This document shows positions 32,022-53,875 of a DNA stretch of 64,000 nucleotides, one piece after another. Each line of letters opens with the position of its first letter. Position 1 is the stretch's first letter. The notes under the pieces are model-generated. The model was given only the letters and a program-made list of their open reading frames with translations, made no database searches and was not told the origin of the DNA. Source of the stretch: Candidatus Pacebacteria bacterium GW2011_GWA1_46_10 (GTDB taxonomy: Bacteria; Patescibacteriota; Microgenomatia; UBA1400; PJMF01); assembly GCA_001002135.1 (NCBI GenBank), contig LCLP01000001.1, positions 8,417-72,416 of the forward strand, in the 5' to 3' direction. A program made the position numbers and the translations under genes.

Positions 32022-32030
32022 TAGTTTTGA

Positions 32031-32897: not shown

Positions 32898-33044
32898 TCG
32901 GTTGCTTTCAGCTATTGGTGCTGAGGAATAGCATACAGAGGTTTTCTGGCTAGGGTCAAGCAGACTGATCTCAGTAGCAGTTTTGGTTTGGAAAAGAAAT
33001 GAGCGCGGTTTTGTCGCCCAGCTTGTCGGTTAGTGACTGTCAAA

Positions 33045-34099: not shown

Positions 34100-34774
34100 A
34101 TGCAACTAAACTTATTAAAATTTAAAGTTTTGTCAAATTTTGCTTTTCTGCCTTGGGTAAAACGGAGCTTTATTTTTTTACGTCTCGCCAGTTGTCCGTT
34201 TATGGAGTTGATAACTTACCTACCAAAGAAAGGCAAGTTACTTGATGTTGGCACTGGGTTCGGATTATTGCCTTTATTACTTAAACAGCACAACTCCCAA
34301 TTGCAAATTATTGGTATTGATCCAGATGCCGAGCGCATTAAGCTGGCTCGGCAAGCCAATCAAAATCTTAGTAATTTTCAGTTTCAAGTAGGCACAGTAC
34401 TAGATCTAGACTTGCGACAAACTTTTACAGTCGCAACCTTGGTGGATGTTTTGTACTTACTTCCCCAAAGCGAAAAAATAAAAACCATTCAAGCAGTGTA
34501 TCGATTACTTGAACCAAATAGTTTGTTAGTCATCAAAATCAATGACAAATCTTTTAGTCTCAGCTATTTTTTCACTTGGTTGCAAGAAAAAATGACGGTA
34601 CAGATTTTTAAGGAAACCACTACCAATTTCCCTGGTTTATATTTTGAAAATGCGGCGGAAGTGAGCGAACTGTTGGAAAACAATGGTTTCCAAGTACAAA
34701 AAAGGGTGAAACTTAAAACTCCGTTCCCCTTTTTCCACCCGCATTGGTTAGTGGTTGCACAAAAGAAAAACTAA
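34100..34774 (+). CDS. class I SAM-dependent methyltransferase
   Basis: Motif I 'LLDVGTGFGLLPLLL', motif post-I 'IIGIDPD', motif II-like 'FTVATLVDVLYLL'. Confidence 0.75.
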   Translation: MQLNLLKFKVLSNFAFLPWVKRSFIFLRLASCPFMELITYLPKKGKLLDVGTGFGLLPLLLKQHNSQLQIIGIDPDAERIKLARQANQNLSNFQFQVGTVLDLDLRQTFTVATLVDVLYLLPQSEKIKTIQAVYRLLEPNSLLVIKINDKSFSLSYFFTWLQEKMTVQIFKETTTNFPGLYFENAAEVSELLENNGFQVQKRVKLKTPFPFFHPHWLVVAQKKN

Positions 34775-34785
34775 TAACATGAGTT

Positions 34786-36339
34786 TTACCGAACATTCAT
34801 TACCAAAATCGGCGTTTGGAAAGAACCGATGGTTTTTTCCAAAATGAAGGTCTCGCCGTAATAGTTTCGATTAATTTTTTCCTCAAAACTAGTAAAGCAG
34901 TCATTGATGGAAAAATTGCTGTTTACCTGATGACAAATTACGTACAGAGTAACCAAGTTAGTTTTCGATCGGCGGGTAGCTTTGCTGGTTTCAGGATCAA
35001 TATCCACCAGATATTCTCCAGTCAATTTTTCCAAATTGTACCAGTAATAAGAGGTTTCCCAACCATAAGGGTCGTAGTGACTGATGGCTAACAGGTCAAT
35101 ATCAGTAAGAGGCAATTGTTTTTGATGGGCGTCATTTAAGATTCCTGTGGCTGCTTGACGAGCAGCGGTGATAGTGGATGCGCCCGTCAGTCTCATACTA
35201 GTCAAATTAGTTTTAAGTAAAAATGCTGATAAAAAAATAATTGCTATGACAAAAACTGTGTTTTTTAATTGACCCAATAATGCACTCAACCAGAGTAATA
35301 AAAAGGGAGTGACAACCAATAAATAAGCGCGCGAAAATATGGGAAGTGTTTCCTGAATTAAAATAGCTATCAAAACGGCAGGCAGGAAGCTGAAAAGAAA
35401 TAGTAAAATTATTCCCTTGCTATGAGCTTTTAGGGTTTTGTTGAAATTTGCCAATACTGCGGCACTGATAAAAAAAGCGAAGAAAATGATGTCGTTTTTA
35501 GTTTCTGAAGATGGGAAATAAAGAAACACTTGCTTGAGGCTCAGAGTTAATCGTTCACCTAATTTCGAAGTAGCTATGGCTGTCTGTGACTGCTGATAAT
35601 ACTGGCCGATTATTTGAAATCTGGCCCAGTCATATTTCACTTCGACTAATAAAATGGGCAAATAAATTGCCACTGCCCCTAAAGTGAAGATAATTATTGC
35701 TCTGATTGGTTTAGCGAGATTTTTTAATTCACGAACAAAAAGAATAGCCTTGAGGGGTATGAGTAGGTACATGGGTGGATAAAACTGGGTAGCTAGTAAA
35801 CTGATGAGAACGGCACTGATAAAAAAATTTTCTCTTTTACCTTGCTTGAAAAGGGCGAATAAATAGAGAGCAATTGTGTCAAAAAAAATGGCAATAACAG
35901 GTTGTGAGGCCCAAGTGGAAGTGTAGAGCATGGTGGGCAAAAAAAGGGCTAAGACGAGGACAGCCATGCCAGTTTTTTGATTGAAGAAGATGCAAGCTAT
36001 CCGATAAAGAAAATAAGCTTGTAATAAATTAATGACAGTAAAAATCAAAATATATCCTTCTGGAGTTTGTAGTCCAATGAGATAAATTAAAGTTAGAAAA
36101 TAGTATCCCAATGGCGAGTTATGTAAGAGGTATTTATCGTCAGTATCTAAAGCACTAATTTCTCCCAACTCTGGAAATTTACCATATTTAATCAGGCGTT
36201 CCGCCGTCAGTAGTTGCACTCCCTCATCTCCGGCAATTGTTTCGAAATGGCTCCAATTGATTAATCTAAAAACAGCGCCGATTAAAAAAAACAGCCCGAT
36301 AATTATTAAAGTTTTGTTTTTTAAAATAATTTTTACCAT
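34786..36339 (-). CDS. GT-C fold glycosyltransferase, PMT/ArnT-like (GT39/GT83 family, PMT_2-type)
   Basis: About 12 TM segments. A conserved acidic 'AGDEG' motif in the first extracytoplasmic loop (the DE motif of the PMT/ArnT family). 517 aa. Confidence 0.6.
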   Translation of the reverse strand: MVKIILKNKTLIIIGLFFLIGAVFRLINWSHFETIAGDEGVQLLTAERLIKYGKFPELGEISALDTDDKYLLHNSPLGYYFLTLIYLIGLQTPEGYILIFTVINLLQAYFLYRIACIFFNQKTGMAVLVLALFLPTMLYTSTWASQPVIAIFFDTIALYLFALFKQGKRENFFISAVLISLLATQFYPPMYLLIPLKAILFVRELKNLAKPIRAIIIFTLGAVAIYLPILLVEVKYDWARFQIIGQYYQQSQTAIATSKLGERLTLSLKQVFLYFPSSETKNDIIFFAFFISAAVLANFNKTLKAHSKGIILLFLFSFLPAVLIAILIQETLPIFSRAYLLVVTPFLLLWLSALLGQLKNTVFVIAIIFLSAFLLKTNLTSMRLTGASTITAARQAATGILNDAHQKQLPLTDIDLLAISHYDPYGWETSYYWYNLEKLTGEYLVDIDPETSKATRRSKTNLVTLYVICHQVNSNFSINDCFTSFEEKINRNYYGETFILEKTIGSFQTPILVMNVR

Positions 36340-36363
36340 TTAGAGGATTCTCGCTCACTAATT

Positions 36364-37473
36364 TTATTGCTGTTTGATTAAATTAAGCACACTCAAACAG
36401 TCTTCTAAATTACCAGCATAGCAGTCATAACGATATTGATATTGAACAATGCTAAGTAAAATAATGATGGCCCAAAAAACCATTGGTTTTTTTATAAATA
36501 CTTGCAGTAGGGCCAAAAAAAGCAAGTAAAAAACTGGCAAAATCGGCAGGATATGTCTGGGCAAGAGGTAACCAAGTTTAGTTATCATCAGTAGAGTTGG
36601 TAACGATACAGCACCCAAAACCAATGCTAGGGTGATCACTTCTTTAATGGTTTTGATAAGTTTCTTACTAAACATTAACATTACAACACTAGAACCAGAA
36701 ATGAGATACCGTCCCTGACGGACAGTGATATAAGTAATGGCGTCCCACAGACTTTGCCATGGTTGCTCGTCATAAAATCTTTCTGGTGAGTAAACCCACC
36801 AACCGGCAATCGATGCGTGTATGTATAACCAGACTACAGTCATAACAGGTAGCGGTGAAATATAACGTATTAACCAAGAGAGTTTGTTTGTGATGCCTTT
36901 TTCCAAAAATAAATAAACTCCGGCTGCTAGGGTAATAAAAAGTGCGTTGTCAACTCTGAATAAAATAGCCAAGATAGCAATTAAAGTGAAGCTAAAATAT
37001 TTTTTCTTGATTAAAAAAATGACACTTAAAAAACGCAGAGCAGCCCCAACGATCTCAAAATAAACGAGATGAGTTTGAGCTATAAAAAGCGGATTGGTGA
37101 GAAATAAAACTACCAAAGCCTGGCCAATTTTTTTACTGGCTATACTTTTGCCCAAAAAATACATCACCACCAGGAAAAACAGCGATAAAAATAAACTTAA
37201 TAAATGAATAAAAAAGAGATGATTAGTGGTTAGTTTGATAATAAAAGCGATTATCAACGGCAATAAAAAAGTATGAGGATAATCGCTGCCACCAAAGTAT
37301 GAAAAAAGATTGCCAGTTTGAGCAATAGCATAACCTGCAGGGACCAGAAACCAGGCAGTGTCCCAGTAGAAAGGGAGAGAAAAGCTTTTTTTAGTTGACA
37401 AGAGTAAAACAATTGTTACCCCCAACCAAAAAAGCATATCCTGCCAACTAACTTTTTTAGTTGTTTTAGTCAT
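36364..37473 (-). CDS. polytopic membrane protein, probable second GT-C-like glycosyltransferase (start uncertain; ORF open to 37506)
   Basis: 10 or more TM segments, 'WDTAWF' in the first loop. Operon partner of the PMT/ArnT-like gene and the GT2-YdjC fusion. Confidence 0.4.
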   Translation of the reverse strand: MTKTTKKVSWQDMLFWLGVTIVLLLSTKKSFSLPFYWDTAWFLVPAGYAIAQTGNLFSYFGGSDYPHTFLLPLIIAFIIKLTTNHLFFIHLLSLFLSLFFLVVMYFLGKSIASKKIGQALVVLFLTNPLFIAQTHLVYFEIVGAALRFLSVIFLIKKKYFSFTLIAILAILFRVDNALFITLAAGVYLFLEKGITNKLSWLIRYISPLPVMTVVWLYIHASIAGWWVYSPERFYDEQPWQSLWDAITYITVRQGRYLISGSSVVMLMFSKKLIKTIKEVITLALVLGAVSLPTLLMITKLGYLLPRHILPILPVFYLLFLALLQVFIKKPMVFWAIIILLSIVQYQYRYDCYAGNLEDCLSVLNLIKQQ

Positions 37474-38845
37474 ATAAACTTCCCGGATGAGTAATTTGAA
37501 CATCAAAGAATAATTTAGATTTTTGTTTGGGATGTATAAGCAACAGTTGTTTCAAGTTCAGTAGTGTTTGTAGCAACAAAAAAGGTAAATACTTTTGTGG
37601 CCGCAAACGAAGGTAGTTGGTAGTAGAACTTGTACCCCTAATTTGGACTTGATGCTGAGCCGCCATTTCTTCCACTATTTGCTTGATTGGAAAAAAGGTG
37701 TGAAGGTGTTGCTCTGAATCTAGGTAATTGACAGCAAAGCCCAATTTTTTTAAATATTTGAACTGGTTAGTAAATTCTAGCTTTACTTCGGTCAGCTTTA
37801 CTTGTCCAAAAAAAAGCTTAGTTAATAAAACTGGCAAAGAAAAAAAGTTCCCTTGCTGGTCTATTAGGGAACTGACCAATTTTTGTATAGTGATAGGCTT
37901 TCCTCTGGTTAAATTGAGATGAAGACCGATCTTGACTGATCGTTGGTAAGCAAGCAATTTTCGACTATCTATTGTGGAAACAAGATTTACTAAAACGGAC
38001 ACACCAGTCAGATTTTTAGCGGCCGCTTGATCAATTACAGCCTCATTAACAACTGACGATAAACCATAATCATCAGCAATAACTGGTAGACGGCTTAATT
38101 GATTGTTTGAATTATTAGATAAATAACCGCCGAGTTTAAAGGTGATTATTCTCCATAAATCAATGAGTGTGAGTCGAACTCTTCGCCAAGAAGTATAACG
38201 AGTTGGTCGCAATTCCCTCACAACAACAGGAACCTCCTGGAGACTTTGTTTTTGTTGGCAAAGCTTTAACAGTAATTCTGTATCCAGCAGCTCATGTTTG
38301 ACGGAGCACGCTCTTAAAGTTTTTATCAGAGCTGGAGTACTACGAAATGCTTTTAAACCATGAGTGTCTGTACCGGGGTATGAAAATAACATCTTGAGCG
38401 ATTGATGAAAAATTTTGGTTTGAATTTGGCGAAGTAATCCACGGTGGTCTTGGCTTTCACGTAATGTTTTTGAGCCTACCACGATTTCGTATTTATCGAG
38501 CAATTTTTTTGCCTGGGAAATGAAATTCGAATTGAAAAAATCAATATTTAAGACATAGATTTTTTGGCCTAAAGCGCTCAAAATCCCGTGTTTAAGAGCT
38601 TGGCCATAAGAAGCCTGACTAATGCGCAAATTACGTAAACCAGGATATTTTTTAGCGAGCCTTTGCATAGTTGCCCAGGTTTGATCAGTGCTGCCGTTTT
38701 CGATTAGTAACACTTCAAATTGAGTAAAATAGTTTTTTTCTAATAACTGGTAAAAAAGCTTTAATTGAGGGGAGAGATAAGAAGCTTCATTATAAACAGG
38801 AAATATAAAGCTATGTCGAACTGAGGAATGGACATTGTTACTCAT
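37466..38845 (-). CDS. bifunctional fusion: N-terminal family 2 glycosyltransferase, C-terminal YdjC/ChbG-like carbohydrate deacetylase
   Basis: GT2 'SFIFPVYNEASYL...LLIENGSTDQT'. YdjC-type 'SRLPVIADDYGLSSVVNEAVIDQAAAKNLTGVSVLVNLVST' starting around residue 235. Confidence 0.7.
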   Translation of the reverse strand: MSNNVHSSVRHSFIFPVYNEASYLSPQLKLFYQLLEKNYFTQFEVLLIENGSTDQTWATMQRLAKKYPGLRNLRISQASYGQALKHGILSALGQKIYVLNIDFFNSNFISQAKKLLDKYEIVVGSKTLRESQDHRGLLRQIQTKIFHQSLKMLFSYPGTDTHGLKAFRSTPALIKTLRACSVKHELLDTELLLKLCQQKQSLQEVPVVVRELRPTRYTSWRRVRLTLIDLWRIITFKLGGYLSNNSNNQLSRLPVIADDYGLSSVVNEAVIDQAAAKNLTGVSVLVNLVSTIDSRKLLAYQRSVKIGLHLNLTRGKPITIQKLVSSLIDQQGNFFSLPVLLTKLFFGQVKLTEVKLEFTNQFKYLKKLGFAVNYLDSEQHLHTFFPIKQIVEEMAAQHQVQIRGTSSTTNYLRLRPQKYLPFLLLQTLLNLKQLLLIHPKQKSKLFFDVQITHPGSLYD

Positions 38846-38906
38846 GAATGAGTGTTATCATAGTTTTTGAAACTATCAAGGTCAATTAAATAGAATCTGG
38901 GAGGAA

Positions 38907-41444
38907 ATGAGTTTTTTTTTACCAACTAAGCATTTAATTAATCAGACGAGGCGTCAAAAGCAAACTCAACTACATCAGTTGGAAAACAAGCTTAAAAAAA
39001 GCCGCTCATTAAATGAGTATCTGCGCGCTCTTGATAGGTGGGGCCAATTAAATACATTAGTTTTTGCCAAAATTTATAAAGAAATTTTTTCTAAAAAAGA
39101 GAAACTCCATAGCTCACTTTGTGTTTCAGGAAGTTATGCGAGCGGCAGCTTAACATGCAGGTCAGATCTTGACGTTGTGTTATTTTACGATTCGCGTTTT
39201 TTGCCAAAGCGTGATGTAGAGAGAAAAATACAAAGTTTTTTATCAGTAGTTCAGCCGCTGGTGGGCAAAGCTGATTATATTATTTTTGACACAAATCAAG
39301 CTTCTAGTTCAGATTTTTTTGACACTGTAAACCCATTTTTACTAAACTTTTTCTTGATACACTCTTTTATTTCGGGCAATCAACAGCTTTATAGAGAAAC
39401 AGCTAACAACCTAGCTAAAAATGAAAAAATTACCCAGCAACTGGTGGAGTTTATTTATGTTCACAAACAGCTTCCCAAGTTCGGTTTTACTGAAAATACC
39501 CAGTTTCACGTTAAAATTTCTCCGGGAGGGCTTTTAACGCTTACTTTAGCTTTTCATTTTTTGCGGTCATCAAAGTTTTTTTCTCAAGATTTAAGCTTGA
39601 TTGAAGTTCTCAGAAATCTCAATCAACTTAAGGAATTTTCTAGAAAAGAGTGCTTAGCAGTGATTGATTCTTTTAAATTATTGCGTTTTGTAAAAAGTGA
39701 GTTAGAAATTATCAGCAATTCTGATCAGGTCCCGGTTAAAGAAGAGCTCCTATTTAAAATAAGCCAAAGAAATAATTGGATTCCCGACGGAAAGATTTTA
39801 TACACCGCAATCAACAGAGCCAGAAGAACTATTCTTAATTTTGATGAAAAAATTCAATCAATGATTTTGGATAAGCTCGGAATTGATAAAAAAAAGCTTC
39901 TCCAATTTTATAAAAATCAAAAAAACTGGGAAAAGCTCATAAGCGATACTGAAAAACCTTTTTACAACACCATCTTTGCTTGGACAACCAATAATCCTGT
40001 AGTGAGCGAGGGGCTTTTTTACCAAACAGAAAAAAAATCGACCCCTTTTTTGCTGGGGTTGATGCAAAACCCGATCACCCCTGGCAAGATACTTAATAAG
40101 GTGGAAATTCTTAGTAGAGATACTCAATACCTTAAAGTAAGAAATCGCTTTTTGCTTTATCACCCGTTTCTGATGAAAAAAACACTATTGCGAATGGTGA
40201 CAAAAGATTGGAGTGCATTTCTGTCATTTGTCCACACATTGCGGAATAAGATTTTTCAACAAGTTTTGTGGCTTCTTTCAAAATTAAAATTCTTCGGTTT
40301 AAGAAAGGTTTTTTATGCGGCAAAGGACTTCACTCTTTTTCTTAAAAAGATACATTTATCAAATGACATAGTGTTTTTGTCAAAAAGCAAGAAGGAGGAA
40401 ATACTATCGAGTTTTGTAAAAGAGCTATCTCGTCTAGAGATGGTTGAAGCGGTTTACAACATAGGAAGGAAGAAATATGTTTCGGGAATATCGGATTTAG
40501 ATTTAGTGGTGATAGTCAAAAAGAGTGGTAGTTATTCTTCGCTCAAAAAGGTTTTTTACCAATATCGAGCTAGTTTTAAGTCACAGTCCTATTTGTTTGA
40601 GCATTTTCCTTTTGTTGTCACTCGCAGCCTCTTTGTCGCACTCACTCGTTTTGGCATAATTCCACATCTCAACCACGATCTAACCGAACGTTTGCAGTGT
40701 TTATACGCCAAAAAAGATTTTAGTCAGCCTGAAATAACTGTGAGCGGACAACAGTACAGGCTCTCTTTGTTGGAGCATTATTTTCTTTCTATTTGGTCAA
40801 ACAATCTTACCTTGAGGTATCAGTCAGCAGTTTCTCTCAGGCTCATGATTAAAAGGGTAGAAAAGCTCTTTTTGAATTTTTGTCAATTTTGGCAGTTTCA
40901 AAATCCACCCCCGATCCTTTCGGAAAATGGTTTTTATCAGGAAATGGAGTTAAAAATTTCCAAGACCATTAAAAGTATTCTTAAAACAATATCTAACAAA
41001 GAGATACTTTCGTTTTCCCAGCATGCTGCTCTCTTTCAAATATGGCAGGAGATTGACCAGGCATTTGAAAAGGAAATCAATAACTACTTGCAAGAAACTT
41101 TTCCTGGTAATAGTTTATTATTACCACTTGTGTCTGGTCGCAATCAGTTTGCGGACACCCTTTTTCTGCATATACCAAATCGACAGTTATTTTTTTGGAG
41201 ACTTTTGAAATACTGGTTAGGGAAACAAAAGATTTTGTTAATGAATCATCGATATTTGCTTTATTTCAATACTGTTTTTCAAGATAACCAACCTTTAGGC
41301 AGCAAAAGGTTGAGTTCACTCATTAAAGAAAGGAGAAAGACTAGAATGGCTTGGTACTCTTTTTTAGAAGAAGGGGATTTAATTACATGGAGTAATAGAC
41401 CTTATTTTTATGAGATTTATCAAAAGTATAGGGAAGTTTCTTAA
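38907..41444 (+). CDS. large protein with two GlnE/GlnD-type nucleotidyltransferase motifs (double-NTase, GlnE-like architecture); function unknown
   Basis: Motif 1 'LCVSGSYASGSLTCRSDLDVVLFYD' (around residue 70) and motif 2 'VYNIGRKKYVSGISDLDLVVIV' (around residue 520) both fit the G-x-G...S-D-[IL]-D-[LV] Pol-beta NTase signature as seen in GlnE/GlnD. The two lie about 450 aa apart, as in GlnE halves. Confidence 0.45.
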   Translation: MSFFLPTKHLINQTRRQKQTQLHQLENKLKKSRSLNEYLRALDRWGQLNTLVFAKIYKEIFSKKEKLHSSLCVSGSYASGSLTCRSDLDVVLFYDSRFLPKRDVERKIQSFLSVVQPLVGKADYIIFDTNQASSSDFFDTVNPFLLNFFLIHSFISGNQQLYRETANNLAKNEKITQQLVEFIYVHKQLPKFGFTENTQFHVKISPGGLLTLTLAFHFLRSSKFFSQDLSLIEVLRNLNQLKEFSRKECLAVIDSFKLLRFVKSELEIISNSDQVPVKEELLFKISQRNNWIPDGKILYTAINRARRTILNFDEKIQSMILDKLGIDKKKLLQFYKNQKNWEKLISDTEKPFYNTIFAWTTNNPVVSEGLFYQTEKKSTPFLLGLMQNPITPGKILNKVEILSRDTQYLKVRNRFLLYHPFLMKKTLLRMVTKDWSAFLSFVHTLRNKIFQQVLWLLSKLKFFGLRKVFYAAKDFTLFLKKIHLSNDIVFLSKSKKEEILSSFVKELSRLEMVEAVYNIGRKKYVSGISDLDLVVIVKKSGSYSSLKKVFYQYRASFKSQSYLFEHFPFVVTRSLFVALTRFGIIPHLNHDLTERLQCLYAKKDFSQPEITVSGQQYRLSLLEHYFLSIWSNNLTLRYQSAVSLRLMIKRVEKLFLNFCQFWQFQNPPPILSENGFYQEMELKISKTIKSILKTISNKEILSFSQHAALFQIWQEIDQAFEKEINNYLQETFPGNSLLLPLVSGRNQFADTLFLHIPNRQLFFWRLLKYWLGKQKILLMNHRYLLYFNTVFQDNQPLGSKRLSSLIKERRKTRMAWYSFLEEGDLITWSNRPYFYEIYQKYREVS

Positions 41445-41452
41445 TTTTAAAT

Positions 41453-47645: not shown

Positions 47646-48403
47646 TGTTTTTTGAGTAGATCACCAATAAGTTGTTTGATAATAAGCAAGCTAAAAAGGG
47701 TGTTAAATAAAAAATACCGTTTTGCCAATCGTTTTGGTTCTTGGGCAAATCTAAATAACCATTCCAAGCCGATCGATTGCAACCAGGATGGAGCCTGTCT
47801 GACCTTGCCGGTCATAAAGTCGAAGGCGGCACCAACACCGATCGCCACGGCCTGTTTGAGCTTCGGTGCGGCTTTCATCATCCACTGTTCTTGGAAAGGA
47901 CAACCCAGGCCGACAAAGACTATTTTTGCTTGTGAAGTGTTGATTTGTTTGATGATGTGTCGATTTTTTTCGTCAGGAATTGGCCTGATTGGTGTGTCTA
48001 ACTGGCCGACGATTTTTAGACTGGGAAATGTGTTTTGTAAGACTTGTTTGAGTTGCTGGCTTTGACCTTTAGCCCCACCGAGTAGAAATATTGGCCAGCG
48101 CTTTTGCACTGCTTTTTGACAAACCAGCTTCATTAGGTCAGGCCCGTAAACGCGTTCAACTGGTCGCTGACCATACAGTTTCAAAAGCCACGCAAGCGGC
48201 ATGCCATCGGGAGTGACTAACCCTGCTTGGTTAACTCCCTTAAGTAGTTGGAGGTCAGCCTGACACTCCATGATTAAGTGAACAGCTGCCACACACACGT
48301 AGTGTGGTTGACGGTTTTTAACCCATGAGGAGATGGTTTTGATGGTCAGTGAATACGTAAGGACAGAGACGTTTACCCCGAGAATATTAGTGGCTTTGTT
48401 CAT
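47642..48403 (-). CDS. tagA: WecB/TagA/CpsF family glycosyltransferase (GT26; N-acetylmannosaminyltransferase-like)
   Basis: 'ILGVNVSVLTYSLTI...PHYVCVAAVHLIMECQ...LVTPDGMPLAWLLKLYG...IFLLGGAKG...IVFVGLGCPFQEQWM' follows the TagA/WecG pattern. Confidence 0.8.
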   Translation of the reverse strand: MNKATNILGVNVSVLTYSLTIKTISSWVKNRQPHYVCVAAVHLIMECQADLQLLKGVNQAGLVTPDGMPLAWLLKLYGQRPVERVYGPDLMKLVCQKAVQKRWPIFLLGGAKGQSQQLKQVLQNTFPSLKIVGQLDTPIRPIPDEKNRHIIKQINTSQAKIVFVGLGCPFQEQWMMKAAPKLKQAVAIGVGAAFDFMTGKVRQAPSWLQSIGLEWLFRFAQEPKRLAKRYFLFNTLFSLLIIKQLIGDLLKKQ

Positions 48404-49424
48404 ATTCGATGATCTCGTCGATAATTTGATTAAGCGACTTAGTAATACGCCATTTTGGATAGGCTTTTTTAAATTTCGCTAAATTAGTGGTATAGCAGAT
48501 GTGGTCGCCAGTACGATGTTTAGGTGTGTAAGTGATTTTTGGCTTGATAGCCAGTTTTTTGGAAACGGTTTCGATCAACTCCAAAATTGAGGCATTGTTT
48601 TTGGTGCCCCCACCCAAGTTAAAAACGGTTCCTTGTGGTGGTTTTTTAATGATCTCATGTATAGCAGTAGCCACGTCGTAGGCGTCAATTTGATCACGTA
48701 CTTGTTTCCCTTTATAACCAATGATTTGATAACTGTTGGTGTGAACTAAAGATTTAATCAGGTAAGACAGAAAACCGTGTAACTTAACTGAGTGGTGGGC
48801 TACACCAGTGACACAACCGAGGCGCAGACAGGTGGTTTTTAGGCCAAAGTACCGGCCGTATTCTTGGACGTAAAGATCGGCTGCAGCTTTGCTGGCGCCC
48901 ATCAGTGAGTGGAGGTTTTGGTCGATGGACATGGTTTCATCTATGCCTTGAAAATGTTGATCGGCAAACCTGTAGCGTTTGGCTAGTTCCTTGAGTGGGA
49001 GGCGATTAGGATTGTCACCATAAACTTTATTGGTACTGGTAAAAATGAAAGTAGCCCCAGGACTGAAGTTTCGAACCGCCTCAAGTAAAGTGAGGGTGCC
49101 CTCAGTATTTATTTCAAAATCTAAGCGAGGAATTTCAGCGGCTTTGTCATGACTTGGTTGACCAGCACAGTGAATAACAGCGTCAAATTTTTCCTTTTTA
49201 AACAACGCGTTTATTTTTTTAACCTCTCTGATGTCTACATCAAAGTGAGTGTAATGAGGAAACTTTTGCAATGATTTTTTGGTTGAAGAGGTCGTGGCTT
49301 TTTTACCAAAAAAACTTGAGCGCATATTGTTATCAATGCCGAAGACTCGGTGCTTTTTCTCGAGGAAATACCGAGTTGCTGTGGAGCCGATCAGGCCAGT
49401 GGAGCCGGTAATACAAATTTTCAT
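48387..49424 (-). CDS. NAD-dependent nucleotide-sugar epimerase/dehydratase (SDR family)
   Basis: Rossmann 'MKICITGSTGLIGSTATRYF' (GxxGxxG). A YxxxK region near 'YGRYFGLKTT' is plausible. 345 aa. Confidence 0.8.
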   Translation of the reverse strand: MKICITGSTGLIGSTATRYFLEKKHRVFGIDNNMRSSFFGKKATTSSTKKSLQKFPHYTHFDVDIREVKKINALFKKEKFDAVIHCAGQPSHDKAAEIPRLDFEINTEGTLTLLEAVRNFSPGATFIFTSTNKVYGDNPNRLPLKELAKRYRFADQHFQGIDETMSIDQNLHSLMGASKAAADLYVQEYGRYFGLKTTCLRLGCVTGVAHHSVKLHGFLSYLIKSLVHTNSYQIIGYKGKQVRDQIDAYDVATAIHEIIKKPPQGTVFNLGGGTKNNASILELIETVSKKLAIKPKITYTPKHRTGDHICYTTNLAKFKKAYPKWRITKSLNQIIDEIIEYEQSH

Positions 49425-49431
49425 ACTTTCT

Positions 49432-50583
49432 TTATGGCTGTTTTCGTTGTTTGAGCAATTGCCTATTAATCGTTGTCAAAAATTGTTGTCGAAAAATGTT
49501 TTCGGAGAACCGCTGAGCCTGTTTGGTGCAGGCGATAGTTGACCATGATTTCTGCTCAAACGTTTTAACTGCTCTGGTCAGAGATTTTAGCGAATATTTA
49601 TTAAACAACAAGCCTGTTTTACCATGACTGACTGTCTCCCTGACACCGCCAGAAGCATAAGCAATCACTGGCACACCATAACTCATTGCTTCAACTGGCA
49701 CTAGACCAAAGTCTTCTTCGACCGCGCCGTAAACCAGGGCTTTAGTATCTTTGTATATTTTGCTGATGTTTTTGTCGGTGAGAAAACCCTTGAAGATGAT
49801 GTGGGACTGAGCGAGTTTTTGAAGTCGTTTTTTTTCTGAGCCTTCACCAACAACTACGAGCGGTTTTTTCAACTGGTTAAAGGCCCTGATAACTAATTCC
49901 GCTCCTTTTTGCTTGACCAACCTGGAATGAAAAAGATAGTATTTTGGACTAACAGTACGCTTGACGGTTTTGTTTTTAGGCAATATTACTGGAGGATAGA
50001 TGACTTGACTTGCCCGCTGGTAGTATTTGGCGATTCTTTGTTGGGTGGTTTTGGAGTTAGTGATTAGGATGTCTGGGCGTTGGGCGGCTTGATAGTCAAT
50101 TTTTCTCAACGCTGTCAAAAAACCAGCAAATAGCCATTTAAAAAGTGGCTTTTTTAGCCAACTCATTTCGTTGAATTCTTGGTAAAGGTAGCGCGGTGGA
50201 GTATGAATATAGGCTATGTGTAGGGTTGGTTGCTGAGTTTTCACTGATTTGGCTGAGAATGAGTGAGATGAAGAAATAACTAAATTGTACTGACTTAAGT
50301 TAAGTTGACGCCAATACCATAAAATAAACGGCTTAATAAAACTGACGTATTTTTCCGGCCATACAACTAGGTTGAAAATCGAGGTGAAAACGCGATGTTT
50401 TTGGCGCAGTTTCTTTAAATATGGCTTCCTGATTAAGGGAATGTAAACATCAGCTTGCGGAAAGAGGGTGAGCAAACTGAGCAAAACTCGTTCTGCCCCA
50501 CCTTGGTAAAGATAACTGTCGTGAACAATGGCCACCGACATTTTTTTTAACTGGTGTTGTTTTGAGAGTTTAGCTTGCCTCAT
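49432..50583 (-). CDS. family 4 glycosyltransferase (GT-B)
   Basis: 'GGAERVLLSLLTLFP' at the N-terminus and 'EDFGLVPVEAMSYGVPVIAYASGGVRETV' at the C-terminus. Confidence 0.85.
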   Translation of the reverse strand: MRQAKLSKQHQLKKMSVAIVHDSYLYQGGAERVLLSLLTLFPQADVYIPLIRKPYLKKLRQKHRVFTSIFNLVVWPEKYVSFIKPFILWYWRQLNLSQYNLVISSSHSFSAKSVKTQQPTLHIAYIHTPPRYLYQEFNEMSWLKKPLFKWLFAGFLTALRKIDYQAAQRPDILITNSKTTQQRIAKYYQRASQVIYPPVILPKNKTVKRTVSPKYYLFHSRLVKQKGAELVIRAFNQLKKPLVVVGEGSEKKRLQKLAQSHIIFKGFLTDKNISKIYKDTKALVYGAVEEDFGLVPVEAMSYGVPVIAYASGGVRETVSHGKTGLLFNKYSLKSLTRAVKTFEQKSWSTIACTKQAQRFSENIFRQQFLTTINRQLLKQRKQP

Positions 50584-53247
50584 AATCCAAACTTGGTTGT
50601 CTACGACAGCGTACGTAATATGATACCTTCTTTTATAATCACTCCGTCGATCTTTTCGGTTTTTTTGATTCTTATTTTGTTGCTGGGCGATTCCTTTTTA
50701 CGTTGGTACTTGATTGGTTTTTTGGCCCTTTTTTTTCTGTTAGCCAGGAAAAATCTTGACTTTAGCTGGGTCAAATATCAGCAGCGACCACTTTTTTTGT
50801 GGGGAATTTTTTTGGGGCTAGCTATAGTTTCTGCGTTTTTTACCCACAACGTGCCGCTCAGTTTAGAGTCGCTGGCGTATTATGGGTTTGCATTTCTGGT
50901 GTTTGTGACAGCTTTGTCGGTGCCGTTGACCAAATCTGTTAAAGAACAACTGTCTTTTTTTGTGGTGTTTATCGGATTCACGCTGTCGTTATTAAGTTTA
51001 TTACTGCTGTTTAACCGTAGTTTGGCCGCTTCTTTGCCGGGGATGAATTTACTGTACCCCACGTACGGCCACAATCATTTAGCGGCTTTTTTGTTACTGG
51101 TTTTACCATTGGGGTGGCGACTGGTGTTGTTTTCGCGACCGCAAGGACAGCGATCTTTGTTTGCAGTGGCTGTTATTACTACTGTTGTTGTGACACTAGC
51201 GTTGCTTTTGAGCTTCGGCCGCACGGCGCTTTTTTTAGGTATTTTGGAGTTAACGATTATCTGGTTTTTTGCTTGGCGCTTCCGTTCCAAGGAGAATGTT
51301 CGAGGTCTTTTGTTTAGGGTAGGGTTACCACTAGTGGTGTTGGCCTTTTTATTTGTTTTTGGCGCCAAGATGTATTTTTCGTATCGGTCGGTTGTCGATA
51401 GTAATTTTATTTGTCCGGTGCCCAGTTGGGCAACTCACAAACTGTGTAAACCGTTTGATACTGAGCTTCGGCTGCTTTATTTTGGTCAGGCGATCAGCGC
51501 GATGAAGGAGTACCCCTTTAATGGGTATGGTCCAGGTACTTTTCAACTTATTAACGAAAAATATCAACAACTGCCTTTTGTTGACACGGCGTATGCCCAT
51601 AATCACTTTCTTCAAACAGGAGCGGAAATGGGAATCGTGGCTGGGGCGATTTTCTTACTGTTGATACTGACTTTATACTGGCGAGCTTTTCAAGTTGTTT
51701 TTCTTAACCGATCGGCAAAGGAAAAAACTTTTAGTTTTAATAAGGCGCTGTATATCAGTGCCGCCGGCTCTTTTTTGAATGCTTGGTTGGATTTTGACTG
51801 GAATTACATTGGTATTTTTACCTTGACGCTTTTTTACCTGGGATTGATTTTGCGTCAGACAAGTACATTCAAAAGAACCAATTGGCGGTTTTATTTTCCG
51901 GTGTCGTTCGTTTCAAAAATGATTGCTTTGGGGTTGTTTACACTAGCAGGGCTTTATATATTCGTTGAATTTTTGACGAGAACTGGTCGGGTGAGGGCAG
52001 CTTTCGACGTTTTCCCGTATTTCAAGGAGCATTTGAAGGTTTTTGAAGCAGAAAGGAAGTCTTTTTCTCCGTCCCAACAGCAGCAATTTTTGTCGTTGTA
52101 TAGGTATCGTCCTACTGCTTACTTTTTTGTTGAGAAACTGCCTGTGGAAGCAGTTTTTGCCGAGGCGAGAGAAGAAATATTTCGCCTTAATCCTTGGCAA
52201 AATCTCTCCTCAAAAGACATTGACTGGTATTTGGAGCATGGTGACTATCAAGCTGCCGATCAAAATTTGACGGCATTAATTGACCGAGTGGAACACGCTG
52301 AGCAGTACTATGATTACCGGCTTGGATTTACCAGAAAAATGGTATTAGTAAATCAGCGGCTTACTCTAGCTGATTATTACCTCCAAATTGGCAACCCACA
52401 AAAAGGCGCGCAGTACTATTTATGGGCGCGCAGTACAGAGCCCTGGATTTTTGACCACCGTTTACCGCCGGTAAATGATCAGTCCAAGGCTGATTTAATA
52501 GAGTTTTTATTGGTGGTTGATCCGTTGGAACCGCAGTGGTGGGGAAGACATTATCAAAACTTAGTCGGTTGGTATTTTCAGGTTTTTTCGTCTGCTGTAA
52601 AGAGTGGCGATGAAGAACAAATGCAATTTTGGTTTGAACTAATCGATGAAAAGTTCACTAATCTAACACTCAGACTGTGGGAGATGGGGAGTGAGTGGTT
52701 GGCTGATTCAGTGCAAACTGCTGTAGGAACCCAAGATCAAGCGTTGGCCAAGCAAAAAGTTGACCAATGGTTTAAGCTCTGGGAACTTTATAGAGGAAGA
52801 GTTAAGGATAATACTCAACTTAATCAAGCCGAAACTCAGTTGGCGGAAGAGTTAGTGAGAGTAAGTGGGTCAGCTCTCTCTCCATCTTTAGAGCAGAGTC
52901 TGCAAGCGGCTGCTGATGAATACTTGGCTGTAAAAGACGTGGACTTCGCGGAGAAGTCACTGACTCTTTTGGCTCAGCGGCCTGGCGAGAACTACTGGTG
53001 GAAAGCACAGCTTGGTCATTTTTACGTTTTTCTGGCTGATCAAGCTCACACGGCTGATGAAAAAACTCAATGGCGAGTTAAAGCGGTTAAAGCCTTTGAT
53101 GATTGTTTAGCGGCTTTCCGTGGCGATCATGATGACTGTGCTGGTGGTAAAGCTGACCTACAAGCGGGTACACCATTTGTGGGACGCTATACTCAAGTCA
53201 GTCAAATCATTCAGGGAAAAAAGCGCTGGCAGGATTTTAGCGATTGA
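50575..53247 (+). CDS. O-antigen ligase (Wzy_C) domain membrane protein fused to a large C-terminal helical, TPR-like extracytoplasmic domain
   Basis: About 12 TM N-terminal half containing 'YAHNHFLQTGAEMGIVAGAIFLL' (O-antigen ligase family H-N...E-G motif). The C-terminal 450 aa is helical-repeat rich. 890 aa. Confidence 0.6.
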   Translation: MPHNPNLVVYDSVRNMIPSFIITPSIFSVFLILILLLGDSFLRWYLIGFLALFFLLARKNLDFSWVKYQQRPLFLWGIFLGLAIVSAFFTHNVPLSLESLAYYGFAFLVFVTALSVPLTKSVKEQLSFFVVFIGFTLSLLSLLLLFNRSLAASLPGMNLLYPTYGHNHLAAFLLLVLPLGWRLVLFSRPQGQRSLFAVAVITTVVVTLALLLSFGRTALFLGILELTIIWFFAWRFRSKENVRGLLFRVGLPLVVLAFLFVFGAKMYFSYRSVVDSNFICPVPSWATHKLCKPFDTELRLLYFGQAISAMKEYPFNGYGPGTFQLINEKYQQLPFVDTAYAHNHFLQTGAEMGIVAGAIFLLLILTLYWRAFQVVFLNRSAKEKTFSFNKALYISAAGSFLNAWLDFDWNYIGIFTLTLFYLGLILRQTSTFKRTNWRFYFPVSFVSKMIALGLFTLAGLYIFVEFLTRTGRVRAAFDVFPYFKEHLKVFEAERKSFSPSQQQQFLSLYRYRPTAYFFVEKLPVEAVFAEAREEIFRLNPWQNLSSKDIDWYLEHGDYQAADQNLTALIDRVEHAEQYYDYRLGFTRKMVLVNQRLTLADYYLQIGNPQKGAQYYLWARSTEPWIFDHRLPPVNDQSKADLIEFLLVVDPLEPQWWGRHYQNLVGWYFQVFSSAVKSGDEEQMQFWFELIDEKFTNLTLRLWEMGSEWLADSVQTAVGTQDQALAKQKVDQWFKLWELYRGRVKDNTQLNQAETQLAEELVRVSGSALSPSLEQSLQAAADEYLAVKDVDFAEKSLTLLAQRPGENYWWKAQLGHFYVFLADQAHTADEKTQWRVKAVKAFDDCLAAFRGDHDDCAGGKADLQAGTPFVGRYTQVSQIIQGKKRWQDFSD

Positions 53248-53875
53248 AGAAAGAAAGTAAAATTGCTTTTATTGAAAGCAGGATTTGTTTTAGATCTTCT
53301 CCGACACCGCCTTTGACCACTGTGGCTTCTTCTAATTCTTGCCAGCGTTTTAACGTATGATGTTTTTCTTTGGAAAATGCCCACTGTGAAAACACTCCTG
53401 GTTTCACTTGTTCCCGCCACGCCCGCCACGCTGGCGGTAAACCTTCGGCCTCAGGGACCGGCAGCGGCCGGGGTCCCACGAAACTCATCTCTCCTTTGAG
53501 AATATTCCATAACTGCGGTAACTCATCCAGGCCGGTGCGAGCCAACCACTTGCCGATCCCGACAAATCGAGGATCGTTGTGGATCTTAAACATCGGTGCC
53601 GGCGCTTCGTTGAGGTGCTGATATTTACGTTTGAGCATGGCGGCATTTTTAGTCATGGTGCGTAGCTTAAGTAGGGTAAAAACTTTACCGTTTTGACCAG
53701 TGCGGCGTTGTTTAAAAAGAATTGGTCGACCAGTAGTAATAAAAATAATCAGGTTGAGAATGAATAAAACGGGACTTAGTAAAACCAGCAGCAAGAGTGC
53801 AGTTGCAAAATCGAAAGTTCTTTTTTGGGGAGAAAAGTAATAGGGGTGTATCTGCATAAAGAATGAGTATAACAA
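53237..53875 (-). CDS. polyprenyl-phosphate sugar phosphotransferase (small PglC/WbaP-C-terminal-type bacterial sugar transferase)
   Basis: 'KRTFDFATALLLLVLLSPVLFIL...GRPILFKQRRTGQNGKVFTLLKLRTM...FKIHNDPRF...LDELPQLWNILKGEMSFVGPRP'. Confidence 0.85.
   Translation of the reverse strand: MLYSFFMQIHPYYFSPQKRTFDFATALLLLVLLSPVLFILNLIIFITTGRPILFKQRRTGQNGKVFTLLKLRTMTKNAAMLKRKYQHLNEAPAPMFKIHNDPRFVGIGKWLARTGLDELPQLWNILKGEMSFVGPRPLPVPEAEGLPPAWRAWREQVKPGVFSQWAFSKEKHHTLKRWQELEEATVVKGGVGEDLKQILLSIKAILLSFFNR

Follow-up and report, generated by a model that had tools for sequence, protein, structure and literature searches.

A surface-glycan assembly locus in a Candidatus Pacebacteria genome: a lineage-conserved core and a low-GC add-on

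The 20-kb block at positions 34100–53875 of the window (the entire 64,000-nucleotide stretch of DNA analysed here) is a real surface-sugar assembly locus, made of known parts. It stems from Candidatus Pacebacteria GW2011_GWA1_46_10, an ultra-small groundwater bacterium of the CPR, and comprises two layers, i.e. a lineage-conserved core of ~12 kb (42.2–53.9 kb) and a low-GC add-on of ~8 kb (34.1–42.2 kb). In functional terms, we consider it fairly probable that an ABC-dependent line for a lipid-linked glycan is combined with an add-on transmembrane glycosylation module. The block is tiled by 16 ORFs with almost no intergenic space, and as most of these recur in unchanged order in other genomes, where their homologues are 30–78% identical, they are real genes and not chance reading frames. 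Strand switches divide them into 8 same-strand runs, so that the "at least six transcription units" of a preliminary description of this DNA stands. Housekeeping genes (rpsA, a tRNA) border the block, and rpsA (53931–55313) directly follows the last gene, an adjacency seen in none of the relatives. Families were assigned with Pfam and NCBIfam profiles and PDB sequence matches, complemented by AF2 and Foldseek for a 512-aa membrane protein. No protein of the locus reached an equivalog cut-off of NCBIfam. This profile search largely upheld the gene inventory proposed earlier, with three of its claims failing.

Based on gene families, the fold of the 512-aa protein, synteny and composition, we infer an order of steps, the sugars, an acceptor and roles for the individual Wzy_C proteins. 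Initiation is attributed to a small monotopic phosphoglycosyltransferase (212 aa; 53237..53875, − strand; Bac_transf 157.5 bits), which is PglC-like as described previously and features a single hydrophobic helix at the N-terminus and readable GLDELPQ and VGPRP motifs. Judged by its sequence, it is the putative initiator on polyprenyl phosphate and would load a sugar phosphate onto undecaprenyl phosphate; an undecaprenyl-diphosphate synthase for the carrier lipid (UppS, 5679–6380) is encoded in the same window. The glycan would then be lengthened in the cytoplasm by a GT26 enzyme and three GT4-type enzymes. The GT26 enzyme (253 aa; 47642..48403, − strand) belongs to the WecG/TagA/CpsF family, as proposed, with PF03808 at 200 bits and the superfamily model TIGR00696 at 180 bits (cut-off 69). 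In a related locus (L035) it is fused to a GT4, thus WecG and GT4 appear functionally linked. GT4_383 (383 aa; 49432..50583, − strand; Glycos_transf_1 117 bits) is 41–50% identical to its counterparts in relatives and usually neighbours TagA, and GT4_397 (397 aa; 46452..47645, − strand; Glyco_trans_1_4 95 bits) has copies of 30–76% identity. The third enzyme (389 aa; 42960..44129, − strand; Glycos_transf_1 35 bits) is TuaH-like, TuaH being its best NCBIfam match (78 bits; cut-off 550). Most loci reaching past Wzy_C have it as the neighbour of that gene, at 39–66% identity; a GT2 takes its place in L033 and L021/L035. Three GT-B/GT4-type enzymes are thus accounted for, but the fourth GT-B expected earlier was not recovered. 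A modified nucleotide sugar would be provided by the SDR epimerase (345 aa; 48387..49424, − strand; Epimerase 139 bits), correctly recognised before, whose closest structures are CDP-tyvelose 2-epimerases (PDB 9rl0, E 2.5e-40; 1orr, E 1e-35), ahead of RmlB (3e-20). Its stop codon overlaps the start codon of the TagA gene.

Export of the finished lipid-linked glycan would proceed via a Wzm/Wzt pair, in line with the ABC-2 exporter described before. The ATPase (255 aa; 41453..42220, − strand; ABC_tran 84 bits) lacks a C-terminal carbohydrate-binding extension, is 52–73% identical in relatives and matches TagH (224 bits) and Wzt (180 bits) best among NCBIfam models, both below the equivalog cut-offs. 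The Wzm-like permease (251 aa; 42211..42966, − strand; ABC2_membrane 56.8 bits) gave matches to galactan Wzm and KpsM, both also under cut-off. The presence of two O-antigen-ligase-like membrane proteins was borne out. The AF2 model of the first, the 512-aa Wzy_C protein (44116..45654, − strand; 63.7 bits; pLDDT 86.6, pTM 0.90), has the ligase WaaL (7TPG, E 2e-6) as its sole significant Foldseek match in the PDB. Its family profile matches PDB 9rmk, "Oligosaccharyltransferase" (E 1.2e-5), and His425 and Arg residues are invariant among 45 homologues. It is predicted to be a glycan ligase or O-oligosaccharyltransferase. The second (890 aa; 50575..53247, + strand; Wzy_C 60.7 bits) combines ~10 TM helices with a ~420-aa C-terminal domain predicted to be extramembrane, for which a TPR match was not significant (E 0.57). 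A search of PDB sequences returned no match. The two are only distant paralogues (34% over 67 aa, E 0.002), and orthologues of the longer protein occur in L034 (53%) and L033 (27%). One or both of these WaaL-fold Wzy_C proteins would move the glycan to a non-LPS acceptor, a step in which a DUF4330-related protein (272 aa; 45644..46462, + strand) probably helps. The latter carries an N-terminal TM anchor and an all-beta domain, predicted to be extramembrane, and its gene is always divergent from the Wzy_C gene.

Initiator, glycosyltransferases, Wzm/Wzt and WaaL-fold proteins are hence all present for a lipid-linked polymer built in the cytoplasm, exported and ligated, as suggested at the outset. 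The coexistence of an ABC route and a WaaL-like ligase is not an unusual hybrid, but the standard logic of ABC-dependent O-polysaccharides and of slg clusters. In the latter, Gram-positive S-layer glycan loci, a WbaP-type initiator occurs together with Wzm/Wzt and an O-oligosaccharyltransferase of the Wzy_C type (PMC2943079). As proposed for the locus here, they couple ABC export to Wzy_C ligation onto a non-LPS acceptor and are the closest characterised single-membrane precedent, with which the earlier idea of S-layer or protein glycosylation agrees.

One of the two Wzy_C proteins could be a polymerase. A Wzy-dependent pathway of the teichuronic-acid or capsule type, with one Wzy_C protein as a TuaE-like repeat-unit polymerase, the DUF4330-like protein as chain-length or co-polymerase partner and the ABC-2 transporter serving another step, would accommodate the two divergent Wzy_C proteins, an initiator of TuaA/WbaP type, weak TuaH-like (78 bits) and TuaC-like (52 bits) matches of two glycosyltransferases, and the invariable pairing of the Wzy_C gene with a gene for a single-pass membrane protein. 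It nevertheless appears unlikely, given that a Wzx/MOP-family flippase is absent from the 16 genes and from the Pfam-annotated neighbourhoods of relatives, most of which have a Wzm/Wzt pair alongside the core. Moreover, the structural and profile matches of the 512-aa protein point to a ligase or oligosaccharyltransferase, and the DUF4330-like model bears no resemblance to polysaccharide co-polymerases.

For the ABC-dependent line, the most likely acceptors would be Ser/Thr residues of neighbouring Pro/Thr-rich, sortase-anchored proteins, the alternative being another wall component. Outside the 20-kb block, three tandem genes (31266..33863, − strand) encode surface proteins that are Cys-rich and Pro/Thr-rich in translation. 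Two of the three end in sortase-type signals (LPVAG and LPQTG, each with a hydrophobic tail), and the NCBIfam model LPXTG_anchor scores 17.2 against a cut-off of 15.9. They are candidate acceptors from gene neighbourhood only. In L036, this family sits between MacB-HlyD and the glycan core, and the adjacency could simply mirror its own synteny with MacB-HlyD.

The add-on opens with a soluble SAM-dependent methyltransferase (224 aa; 34100..34774, + strand; Methyltransf_23 54 bits; GC3 0.37), which co-travels with the next three genes in L007/L032 at 57% identity. The first of these encodes a polytopic 517-aa protein with ~8 or more TM helices (34786..36339, − strand) and an acidic GDEG motif right behind TM1. 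Its PMT_2 score of 21.6 bits falls below the gathering score of 26.1, and PDB sequences gave no match; still, the L032 orthologue (49% identity) has a precomputed PMT_2 match, and L033_519, a PMT_2 protein, is a homologue (E 7e-11). On this evidence it is a probable GT-C glycosyltransferase. The adjacent polytopic protein TM380 (380 aa; 36364..37506, − strand) matched no family in Pfam, NCBIfam or PDB; its orthologue in L007/L032 is 67% identical and occupies an equal position within the block. Previously counted as a second GT-C, it reached only 15% probability in an hhalign profile comparison with the GT-C family, and that assignment was dropped. A flippase for the module was not identified, and TM380 is possibly the flippase or a membrane partner. 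The GT2-YdjC fusion (459 aa, no TM; 37466..38845, − strand; Glycos_transf_2 45.8 bits, YdjC 111.6 bits) is present as claimed. It shares the motifs DDYG, HLNL and EQHLH with its L032 orthologue, and N-I-D occupies the expected DxD position in both. For the YdjC domain, the matching structures are 2i5i and 7vi8. The fusion is predicted to join a polyprenyl-phosphate HexNAc synthase to a carbohydrate de-N-acetylase. In the second layer, the GT2 domain would produce undecaprenyl-P-HexNAc, from which the YdjC domain would strip the acetyl group in the fashion of NaxD, a YdjC-family Und-P-GalNAc deacetylase (PMC11279074). The lipid-linked amino sugar would be flipped, possibly by TM380, and the GT-C would, outside the membrane, transfer this cationic hexosamine onto either the exported glycan or protein. 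GT-A/flippase/GT-C systems provide a precedent (PMC8035078). "Arn-like" is imprecise for such a GT-A plus GT-C system with a NaxD-type deacetylase, as ArnA, ArnB and ArnD are missing; among matches of the GT2 domain, non-lipid GT2s (6p61, GalT1 5hea, 5tze) outscore ArnC (9bhc/8vxh).

The same module might represent protein O-glycosylation of the actinobacterial, Ppm1/Pmt-like kind, placing single sugars on Pro/Thr-rich proteins independently of the ABC polymer. The sole family signal of the GT-C protein is PMT_2 (protein O-mannosyltransferase-like), the solved structure that the GT2 domain matches best is a dolichol-P-mannose synthase (5mlz), and the module directly adjoins the surface-protein genes in this window. 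We regard this as quite unlikely, however, since the only other genome with the module carries it inside the glycan core, between GT4_397 and the DUF4330-like gene, and away from surface-protein genes, the YdjC domain suggests hexosamine instead of mannose, and GtlB and GttB exemplify PMT_2-type GT-C enzymes that decorate wall polymers (PMC8035078).

Relatives were found through homologues of the 512-aa protein, and only those whose DNA spans the region in question were counted. GT4_397, the DUF4330-like gene on the opposite strand and Wzy_C are syntenic in every one of them, down to ~30% identity, with the TuaH-like GT4 next in most as a fourth core gene. Recurrent neighbours of these genes are TagA, GT4_383, Wzm/Wzt, another long Wzy_C and Bac_transf, and the gene content around the core differs between genomes. 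In L011/L025/L036, the MacB-ABC-HlyD flank is 61–80% identical, the core glycosyltransferase and ligase genes 29–47% and the Wzm/Wzt exporter 55–68%. Where MacB and its ABC-ATPase are 73–80% identical (HlyD 61–62%), the core lies at an equal site by MacB-HlyD and the surface-protein genes. The chromosomal site is fixed, and its content diverges fast. Conversely, only one relative (L007/L015/L032) has the block of methyltransferase, GT-C, TM380 and GT2-YdjC, located between GT4_397 and the DUF4330-like gene, unlike its place here. Composition separates the layers as well. GC3 amounts to 0.35 in the left and 0.42 in the right segment against 0.50 ± 0.055 in the flanks, and tetranucleotides of the right segment correlate with the flank at r = 0.95, the value also obtained in the internal control, against 0.87 for the left, which correlates better (0.92) with loci of low-GC Pacebacteria.

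The preliminary description framed the whole 20 kb as an accessory island, read here as horizontally acquired and strain-variable. GC below that of the flanks throughout, the housekeeping borders with their unshared rpsA adjacency and the variable surroundings of the core speak for it. The idea is very unlikely all the same: for ~12 of the 20 kb (42.2–53.9 kb), tetranucleotides are native and order and site are conserved, all 8 assemblies of the species examined, from different samples, share an identical arrangement including the add-on, and integrase genes and boundary repeats are absent. No Pacebacteria genome above 95% ANI was found in which the 42–54 kb segment is missing or replaced by an unrelated cassette. 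The notion of mosaic assembly holds for the left third. Only 34.1–42.2 kb behaves as a putative accessory acquisition, though fixed in the species; as its borders show no repeats, integrase or tRNA junction, we base this on composition and the differing position in one relative only.

Least plausible is a wall-teichoic-acid-type pathway, in which TagA- and TagGH-like proteins make and export a poly-ol-phosphate polymer for attachment to peptidoglycan, as this label, to which the strong GT26 match and the TagH hit of the ATPase gave rise, is contradicted by a Bac_transf initiator in place of TagO/WecA, by the absence of TagB/TagF glycerophosphotransferase, TagD/TarIJ cytidylyltransferase and LCP ligase (16 proteins; 46 window ORFs, Pfam), by unreached equivalog cut-offs for TarA (96 vs 350) and TagH (224 vs 538), and by a wealth of GT4 enzymes and Wzy_C proteins foreign to such synthesis. 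On our reading, the locus is neither a wall-teichoic-acid nor an Arn pathway.

The remaining gene of the left segment encodes a soluble near-orphan protein of 845 aa without TM helices (38907..41444, + strand). The double-NTase architecture proposed for it stood in part: the N-terminal domain matches NTP_transf_2 at 30 bits (Pol-beta-type NTase motif), but the second NTase-like motif, GISDLDLVVIV, lies in a region for which an HMM search gave nothing even at E ≤ 10. PADLOC returned no significant match. The motif G-x-SD[IL]D is common to a few unannotated proteins. Only 13 proteins among 1.84 billion representatives were recovered at E ≤ 1e-3, and a single homologue covers the full length, at 48% identity; it comes from L014, where its gene likewise lies beside the ABC ATPase.

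The interval 34100-53875 is filled by 16 genes with almost no gaps, as judged from ORF listing and HMM scans. The scans largely bore out the gene inventory of the preliminary description, recovering a PglC-like Bac_transf phosphoglycosyltransferase (157.5 bits; 53237-53875), a GT26 enzyme of the WecG/TagA type (200 bits; 47642-48403), an SDR protein (48387-49424), a methyltransferase (34100-34774), an ABC-2 exporter, a GT2-YdjC fusion (37466-38845) and two Wzy_C proteins of 512 aa (Wzy_C_512, 44116-45654) and 890 aa (Wzy_C_890, 50575-53247). The earlier count of four GT-B enzymes is reduced to three, i.e. two strong GT4 enzymes (GT4_397, 46452-47645, and GT4_383, 49432-50583) and one weak, TuaH-like GT4-type enzyme (42960-44129). 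The genes form eight runs on alternating strands, so that the estimate of at least six transcription units holds. Overall, what had been observed in this stretch was largely right and its interpretation partly right (see below).

Synteny was assessed over ±10 kb around Wzy_C_512 homologues in 7 genome loci and 18 metagenome loci (L numbers in the following), against which all window proteins were searched by tblastn; five further neighbourhoods were available with precomputed Pfam annotation. GT4_397, a DUF4330-like gene on the opposite strand (45644-46462) and Wzy_C_512 kept their order in every relative with DNA spanning these genes, and this core order was retained down to 30-35% identity. 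The TuaH-like GT4 follows directly after Wzy_C in most relatives, and is replaced by a GT2 in L033 and L021/L035, while TagA, GT4_383 and the exporter pair lie close to the core in most relatives. A fuller order (long Wzy_C, GT4, SDR, TagA, variable slot, GT4, DUF4330-like, Wzy_C, GT4, Wzm, Wzt) was seen again in L034 (66% identity) and L010, and in modified form in L033. In L035 (Ga0212092_1000030, 6086-7942 (+)), a GT4_383-like and a WecG/TagA-like enzyme are fused into a protein of 618 aa, a Rosetta-stone link which speaks for a functional coupling of these two neighbouring enzymes in the window's locus.

In the window, no gene occupies the variable slot between GT4_397 and the DUF4330-like gene; in L007, L014, L011 and L025 this slot is filled with 3.7-5.2 kb of unrelated genes. 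L034 carries a 1043-aa beta-propeller protein between TagA and GT4_397. In L033, FdtA, DegT and GT2 genes and a pair encoding a no-Pfam protein and a PMT_2 protein surround the same core (16856-19640 and 19677-21410), and in L036 the slot contains, at 10837-15966, genes for a PLP-dependent decarboxylase, a methyltransferase, and QueC-like and MazG-like proteins. Differing decoration genes around a common core suggest that each lineage probably tailors its own glycan differently. The left flank of the window (MacB, ABC ATPase, HlyD and a surface-protein family) recurs 3-5 kb from the core in L011, L025 and L036, where the efflux proteins are 61-80% identical to those of the window, Wzm/Wzt 55-68%, and the core glycosyltransferase and ligase proteins 29-47%. 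The gene rpsA adjoins the locus in no relative examined. The conserved efflux flank combined with low core identity shows that the chromosomal site is fixed and that its glycan genes evolve rapidly, in the manner of O-antigen or cwps loci; by these identities, the proteins of the glycan line have diverged much faster than neighbouring housekeeping-type genes.

The composition of the locus is not uniform. Genes flanking it have a GC3 of 0.50 ± 0.055, and 8-kb control chunks give tetranucleotide correlations with the left flank of r = 0.94-0.96, signatures being corrected for base composition before correlation. The segment 42211-53875 (GC3 0.42; r = 0.95) is indistinguishable from these controls in its tetranucleotide signature. 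The segment 34100-42220 has a GC3 of 0.35 (0.32-0.37) and r = 0.87 with the left flank; its correlation with the loci of low-GC Pacebacteria (L007 and L014) is higher, at r = 0.92. By these measures, the 12 kb on the right appear native, and the 8 kb on the left appear foreign or differently evolving. A search of 33000-43500 for direct and inverted repeats returned only short AT-rich chance matches, and the boundary of the low-GC segment shows no repeats, integrase or junction tRNA. Elsewhere in the window, two genes at 20406-21462 (+), encoding a 201-aa protein without family and a 155-aa DUF192 protein, have a GC3 of 0.35-0.39, which is as low as that of the add-on segment and well under the window mean of 0.50; they may represent a second small foreign patch.

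From gene order and composition together, the region is best described as an envelope-glycan locus that is conserved in the lineage, keeps a fixed site and diverges fast, with a low-GC add-on of 8 kb attached to it, and this description replaces the single mosaic accessory island proposed before. Wzy_C_512 is 100% identical to the hypothetical protein UX28_C0001G0057 of GW2011_GWA1_46_10, whose CPR/Patescibacteria genome lies on a contig of 573,566 bp. This species recurs in many groundwater and sediment assemblies, in which rpsA and the neighbouring genes are identical. All eight assemblies that encode an identical neighbouring protein, from different samples, have the same arrangement, add-on included, i.e. 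no strain-level presence or absence was seen among them.

The add-on block comprises the methyltransferase, a putative GT-C transferase (517 aa, 34786-36339), the 380-aa protein TM380 (36364-37506) and the GT2-YdjC fusion. Among the loci compared by tblastn, it occurs only in Pacebacteria RIFOXYA1_FULL_38_18 (L007/L015/L032; 48-67% identity), named as a 38% GC genome. There the block lies inside the variable slot, in the window outside the core, so that it behaves as a four-gene module moving as a unit. Two GT-C transferases had been proposed for it. One stands as a candidate: the 517-aa protein scores 21.6 bits with PMT_2, below the gathering score of 26.1, its L032 orthologue does score with PMT_2, and a GDEG motif follows TM1. 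TM380 as a second GT-C is unsupported, as nothing matched it in Pfam, NCBIfam or the PDB and its hhalign comparison with the GT-C family reached 15% probability.

The GT2 domain of the fusion (45.8 bits) has its best solved-structure match in the polyprenyl-phosphate glycosyltransferase DPMS (5mlz). ArnC structures (9bhc/8vxh; PDB ArnC E 0.008) rank under several non-lipid GT2s (6p61, 5hea, 5tze), and the ArnC equivalog reaches 20 bits against a cut-off of 529. The DxD position reads N-I-D or N-V-D in two orthologues, and the fusion protein has no TM helices. The YdjC domain (111.6 bits) matches the carbohydrate deacetylases 2i5i and 7vi8, with conserved DDYG and His motifs. No flippase family of the GtrA, Wzx or ArnEF type was detected in the module, TM380 being without family. 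Two precedents bear on its function: NaxD, a YdjC-superfamily enzyme, deacetylates undecaprenyl-P-GalNAc before a GT-C enzyme transfers GalN (PMC11279074), and GT-A/flippase/GT-C systems are the usual route of post-export polymer decoration in single-membrane bacteria (PMC8035078). Together with the structure matches, these lead to the prediction that the module would add a free-amine hexosamine outside the membrane, the YdjC substrate presumably being lipid-linked.

The neighbouring 845-aa protein (38907-41444) was found by tblastn, among the loci compared, only in L014 (48%), where it too adjoins the ABC ATPase. It had been described as a double-NTase protein, of which the N-terminal NTase motif is HMM-supported; the second is a G-x-SD[IL]D motif common to few unannotated proteins and without HMM support. 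An exhaustive phmmer search gave 13 weak matches and a word-index search the protein itself only. These distant relatives belong to no Pfam family, scans of the two halves at E<=10 gave nothing more, and neither BLAST of the N-half against the C-half nor PADLOC was significant.

Glycan assembly would start with the Bac_transf protein of 212 aa, in which a single N-terminal helix is combined with the DE and PRP motifs typical of small monotopic phosphoglycosyltransferases. The SDR protein matches CDP-tyvelose 2-epimerase in the PDB at E 2.5e-40, versus about 1e-20 for dehydratases or GalE, and its gene ends in a stop codon that overlaps the GT26 start codon; from the two observations it would provide the TagA-like enzyme with a C2-epimerised nucleotide sugar. 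The locus has no classical UDP-GlcNAc 2-epimerase. The exporter pair consists of overlapping genes for a permease (42211-42966; ABC2_membrane, 56.8 bits) and an ATPase (41453-42220; ABC_tran, 84.3 bits) with TagH, Wzt and Wzm as best NCBIfam matches, and is conserved close to the core in relatives. The Wzt protein has 255 aa, a YSSGM signature and no C-terminal carbohydrate-binding domain. None of the 16 locus proteins matches a Wzx/MOP-type family (TM380 again being without family), and no chain terminator was found, the only methyltransferase in the locus belonging to the add-on block.

Ligation of the exported polymer would fall to the Wzy_C proteins, with domain matches of 63.7 bits (512 aa) and 60.7 bits (890 aa). 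The AF2 model of Wzy_C_512 (pLDDT 86.6, pTM 0.90) has the O-antigen ligase WaaL (7TPG, E 2e-6) as its only significant PDB neighbour, and the family profile matches PDB 9rmk, an "Oligosaccharyltransferase", at E 1.2e-5. His425 and several Arg residues are invariant in 25 homologues. The Wzy_C domain with conserved His and Arg residues fits O-OTases of the PglL/PilO/WsaB type and WaaL equally, without separating them. Wzy_C_890 shares 34% identity over 67 aa with Wzy_C_512 and is an old paralogue of it, with a predicted extra-membrane C-terminal domain of ~420 aa. TPR repeats, a feature of PglL and WsfB, were sought in these 420 aa and rejected (TPR_16 E 0.57, not significant). The DUF4330-like protein is membrane-anchored and all-beta, and has no informative structural neighbour.

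A single membrane is generally assumed for CPR cells, so that a lipid A-core acceptor is not expected. Just upstream of the locus, three genes at 31266-33863 (-) encode signal-anchored, Cys-rich surface proteins with long Pro/Thr linkers, two of the three ending in a sorting signal (LPVAG or LPQTG). The same tandem family lies between HlyD and the glycan core in L036 (2824-6612), with the endings LPQSG/LPKSG-PEDWLKYLQIG. Between genomes whose glycan genes share no more than 30-47% identity, the sorting signal, LPQ(T/S)G-PEDWL(K/R)YLQ(I/V)G followed by a hydrophobic tail, is conserved to a striking degree. By gene neighbourhood only, these Pro/Thr-rich proteins are the best candidate acceptors.

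In its architecture the locus comes closest to the "conserved backbone plus variable decoration" of rhamnose-rich wall-polysaccharide loci: Epa, GAC and lactococcal cwps likewise combine a conserved cassette for an ABC-exported backbone with variable decoration genes at one chromosomal site (PMC9574508, PMC7188991). It differs from these in having no rhamnose synthesis genes or LCP, in its initiator, and in the presence of Wzy_C in the conserved part. The closest functional precedent would be the slg clusters of Geobacillus stearothermophilus NRS 2004/3a and Paenibacillus alvei, which encode WsaP/WsfP, glycosyltransferases, Wzm/Wzt and WsaB/WsfB (PMC2943079), a likeness drawn at the level of protein families. 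Common to both are a single membrane, a WbaP/Bac_transf-type initiator, cytoplasmic glycosyltransferases, Wzm/Wzt and a Wzy_C transferase with a non-LPS acceptor; ManNAc transferases are also used in P. alvei. Unlike slg, the locus has no rml genes or identified S-layer gene, encodes two Wzy_C proteins instead of one, is arranged on alternating strands rather than as one operon, and shows no demonstrable TPR in the long Wzy_C. The slg literature consulted describes no counterpart of the conserved DUF4330-like protein.

ABC-dependent O-polysaccharides (E. coli O8/O9a, Klebsiella O2a type) share the Und-PP polymer finished in the cytoplasm, Wzm/Wzt and a WaaL-fold ligase. They are initiated by WecA as opposed to a PglC-type enzyme, and are built on the lipid A-core acceptor not expected in CPR; compared with O9a, moreover, the locus Wzt ends without the carbohydrate-binding domain, and a WbdD-like terminator was not found. 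For the add-on, FlmF2/NaxD/FlmK of Francisella provides a parallel, with a GT2, a YdjC-family deacetylase for lipid-linked HexNAc and a GT-C transferase; LgmABC of Bordetella follows the same undecaprenyl-phosphate hexosamine route in lipid A modification. The locus departs from the Francisella system in that GT2 and YdjC are fused, the acceptor is not expected to be lipid A, a methyltransferase and TM380 travel with the module, and the GT2 DxD position is N-x-D. In the multi-component transmembrane glycosylation systems CsbB/GtcA/YfhO, GtlA/GtlB, GacI-L and CsdAB, a GT-A forms a C55-P-sugar that passes via a flippase to a GT-C, often of the PMT_2 type; this GT-C decorates the already exported wall polymer of Gram-positive bacteria, and the backbone pathway to which such modules are added is itself conserved (PMC8035078). 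Here, the locus differs by having no recognisable GtrA/Wzx flippase, an extra deacetylase domain, and a GT-A without TM helices.

The WTA-like module proposed previously fares less well. The TagA protein exceeds the GT26 superfamily model (180 against a cut-off of 69) and stays below the TarA equivalog (96 bits against 350); none of the locus proteins reaches an NCBIfam equivalog cut-off. The initiator is Bac_transf, with no PF00953 TagO/WecA counterpart; TagB/TagF and TagD/TarIJ gave no matches among the locus proteins (Pfam, NCBIfam) or the 46 window ORFs (Pfam), nor did LytR_cpsA_psr (LCP) among the same 46 ORFs scanned with Pfam. For the genes covered by these scans, assignment as a wall teichoic acid pathway is therefore rejected, and so is the Arn-like module, as ArnA, ArnB and ArnD are missing and the block contains no formyltransferase/decarboxylase, DegT aminotransferase or PF01522 deacetylase.

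All parts of the locus come from known families and their catalytic logic is known; it thus extends established biology without introducing a new principle. Features not seen in the systems described so far are the CPR setting, the invariant DUF4330-like partner of a WaaL-fold protein, the paired Wzy_C proteins, the GT2-YdjC fusion moving with GT-C, methyltransferase and TM380, and the orphan NTase-like 845-aa protein. Our literature search found no experimental work on CPR/Patescibacteria envelope glycans and no paper describing such loci. In the Pacebacteria lineage, a conserved ABC-dependent glycan line that includes WaaL-fold ligases occupies a fixed site beside a sortase-type surface-protein family, and decoration modules, the GT2-YdjC/GT-C block among them, enter and leave this locus. 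CPR surfaces are thought to mediate host attachment and phage exposure. One joint reading, which we regard as rather improbable, holds that the four-gene core (GT4_397, DUF4330-like, Wzy_C_512 and TuaH-like GT4) plus Wzm/Wzt would be a lineage-specific, Pacebacteria-type CPR machine linking an ABC-exported polymer to the Cys-rich, Pro/Thr-rich LPQ(T/S)G-PEDWLKYLQIG proteins, with the DUF4330-like protein as a new acceptor-presenting partner and a swappable GT2-YdjC/GT-C module tuning surface charge through a free-amine hexosamine, the fast-diverging locus acting as a serotype-like determinant of host or phage interactions of these ultra-small cells. The PglC-like enzyme, GT26, the two Wzy_C proteins, the DUF4330-like partner and the GT2-YdjC fusion are targets for heterologous reconstitution, and the locus is suggested as a strain-typing marker in metagenomes.

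The remainder of the window encodes housekeeping functions (a class I aminoacyl-tRNA synthetase, ribosomal protein L25, peptidyl-tRNA hydrolase, RecF, rpsA and LepA) and the MacB-HlyD efflux set (28054-31046). A tRNA-Ile(UAU) gene lies at 31104-31181 (-) (ARAGORN "tat"; Rfam tRNA, 72.8 bits). In most bacteria, AUA is read by a lysidine-modified CAU tRNA, so that a genomic UAU tRNA-Ile is uncommon; it may be a sign that this CPR lineage has lost TilS. A tRNA-Ala(UGC)-23S-5S unit spans 56416-59732 (+), with a full-length 23S match at 56649-59512 and no intron. Upstream of it there is no 16S gene, the place being taken by rpsA and a 244-aa hypothetical protein, and the rRNA operon therefore appears unlinked from the 16S gene. 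Directly after the 5S rRNA, a two-gene pair at 59795-60315 (-) encodes an 89-aa protein with weak YafQ/HigB-like toxin matches and an 84-aa partner, taken from the precomputed annotation of L001 and converted to window coordinates; judged by these matches it is probably a toxin-antitoxin pair. About 10 kb upstream of the glycan locus, a gene at 22220-24556 (+) encodes a 778-aa VirD4/TrwB-like coupling ATPase with TrwB_AAD_bind, DUF87 and TraG-D_C domains, and DUF8128 in the precomputed annotation. Further envelope-related genes are scattered over the window, encoding a DUF4012 protein (83-1849 (+)), undecaprenyl-diphosphate synthase (5679-6380 (+)), a stand-alone GT2 (15785-16651 (-)) and a NagZ-like GH3 hydrolase (18793-19956 (+)).
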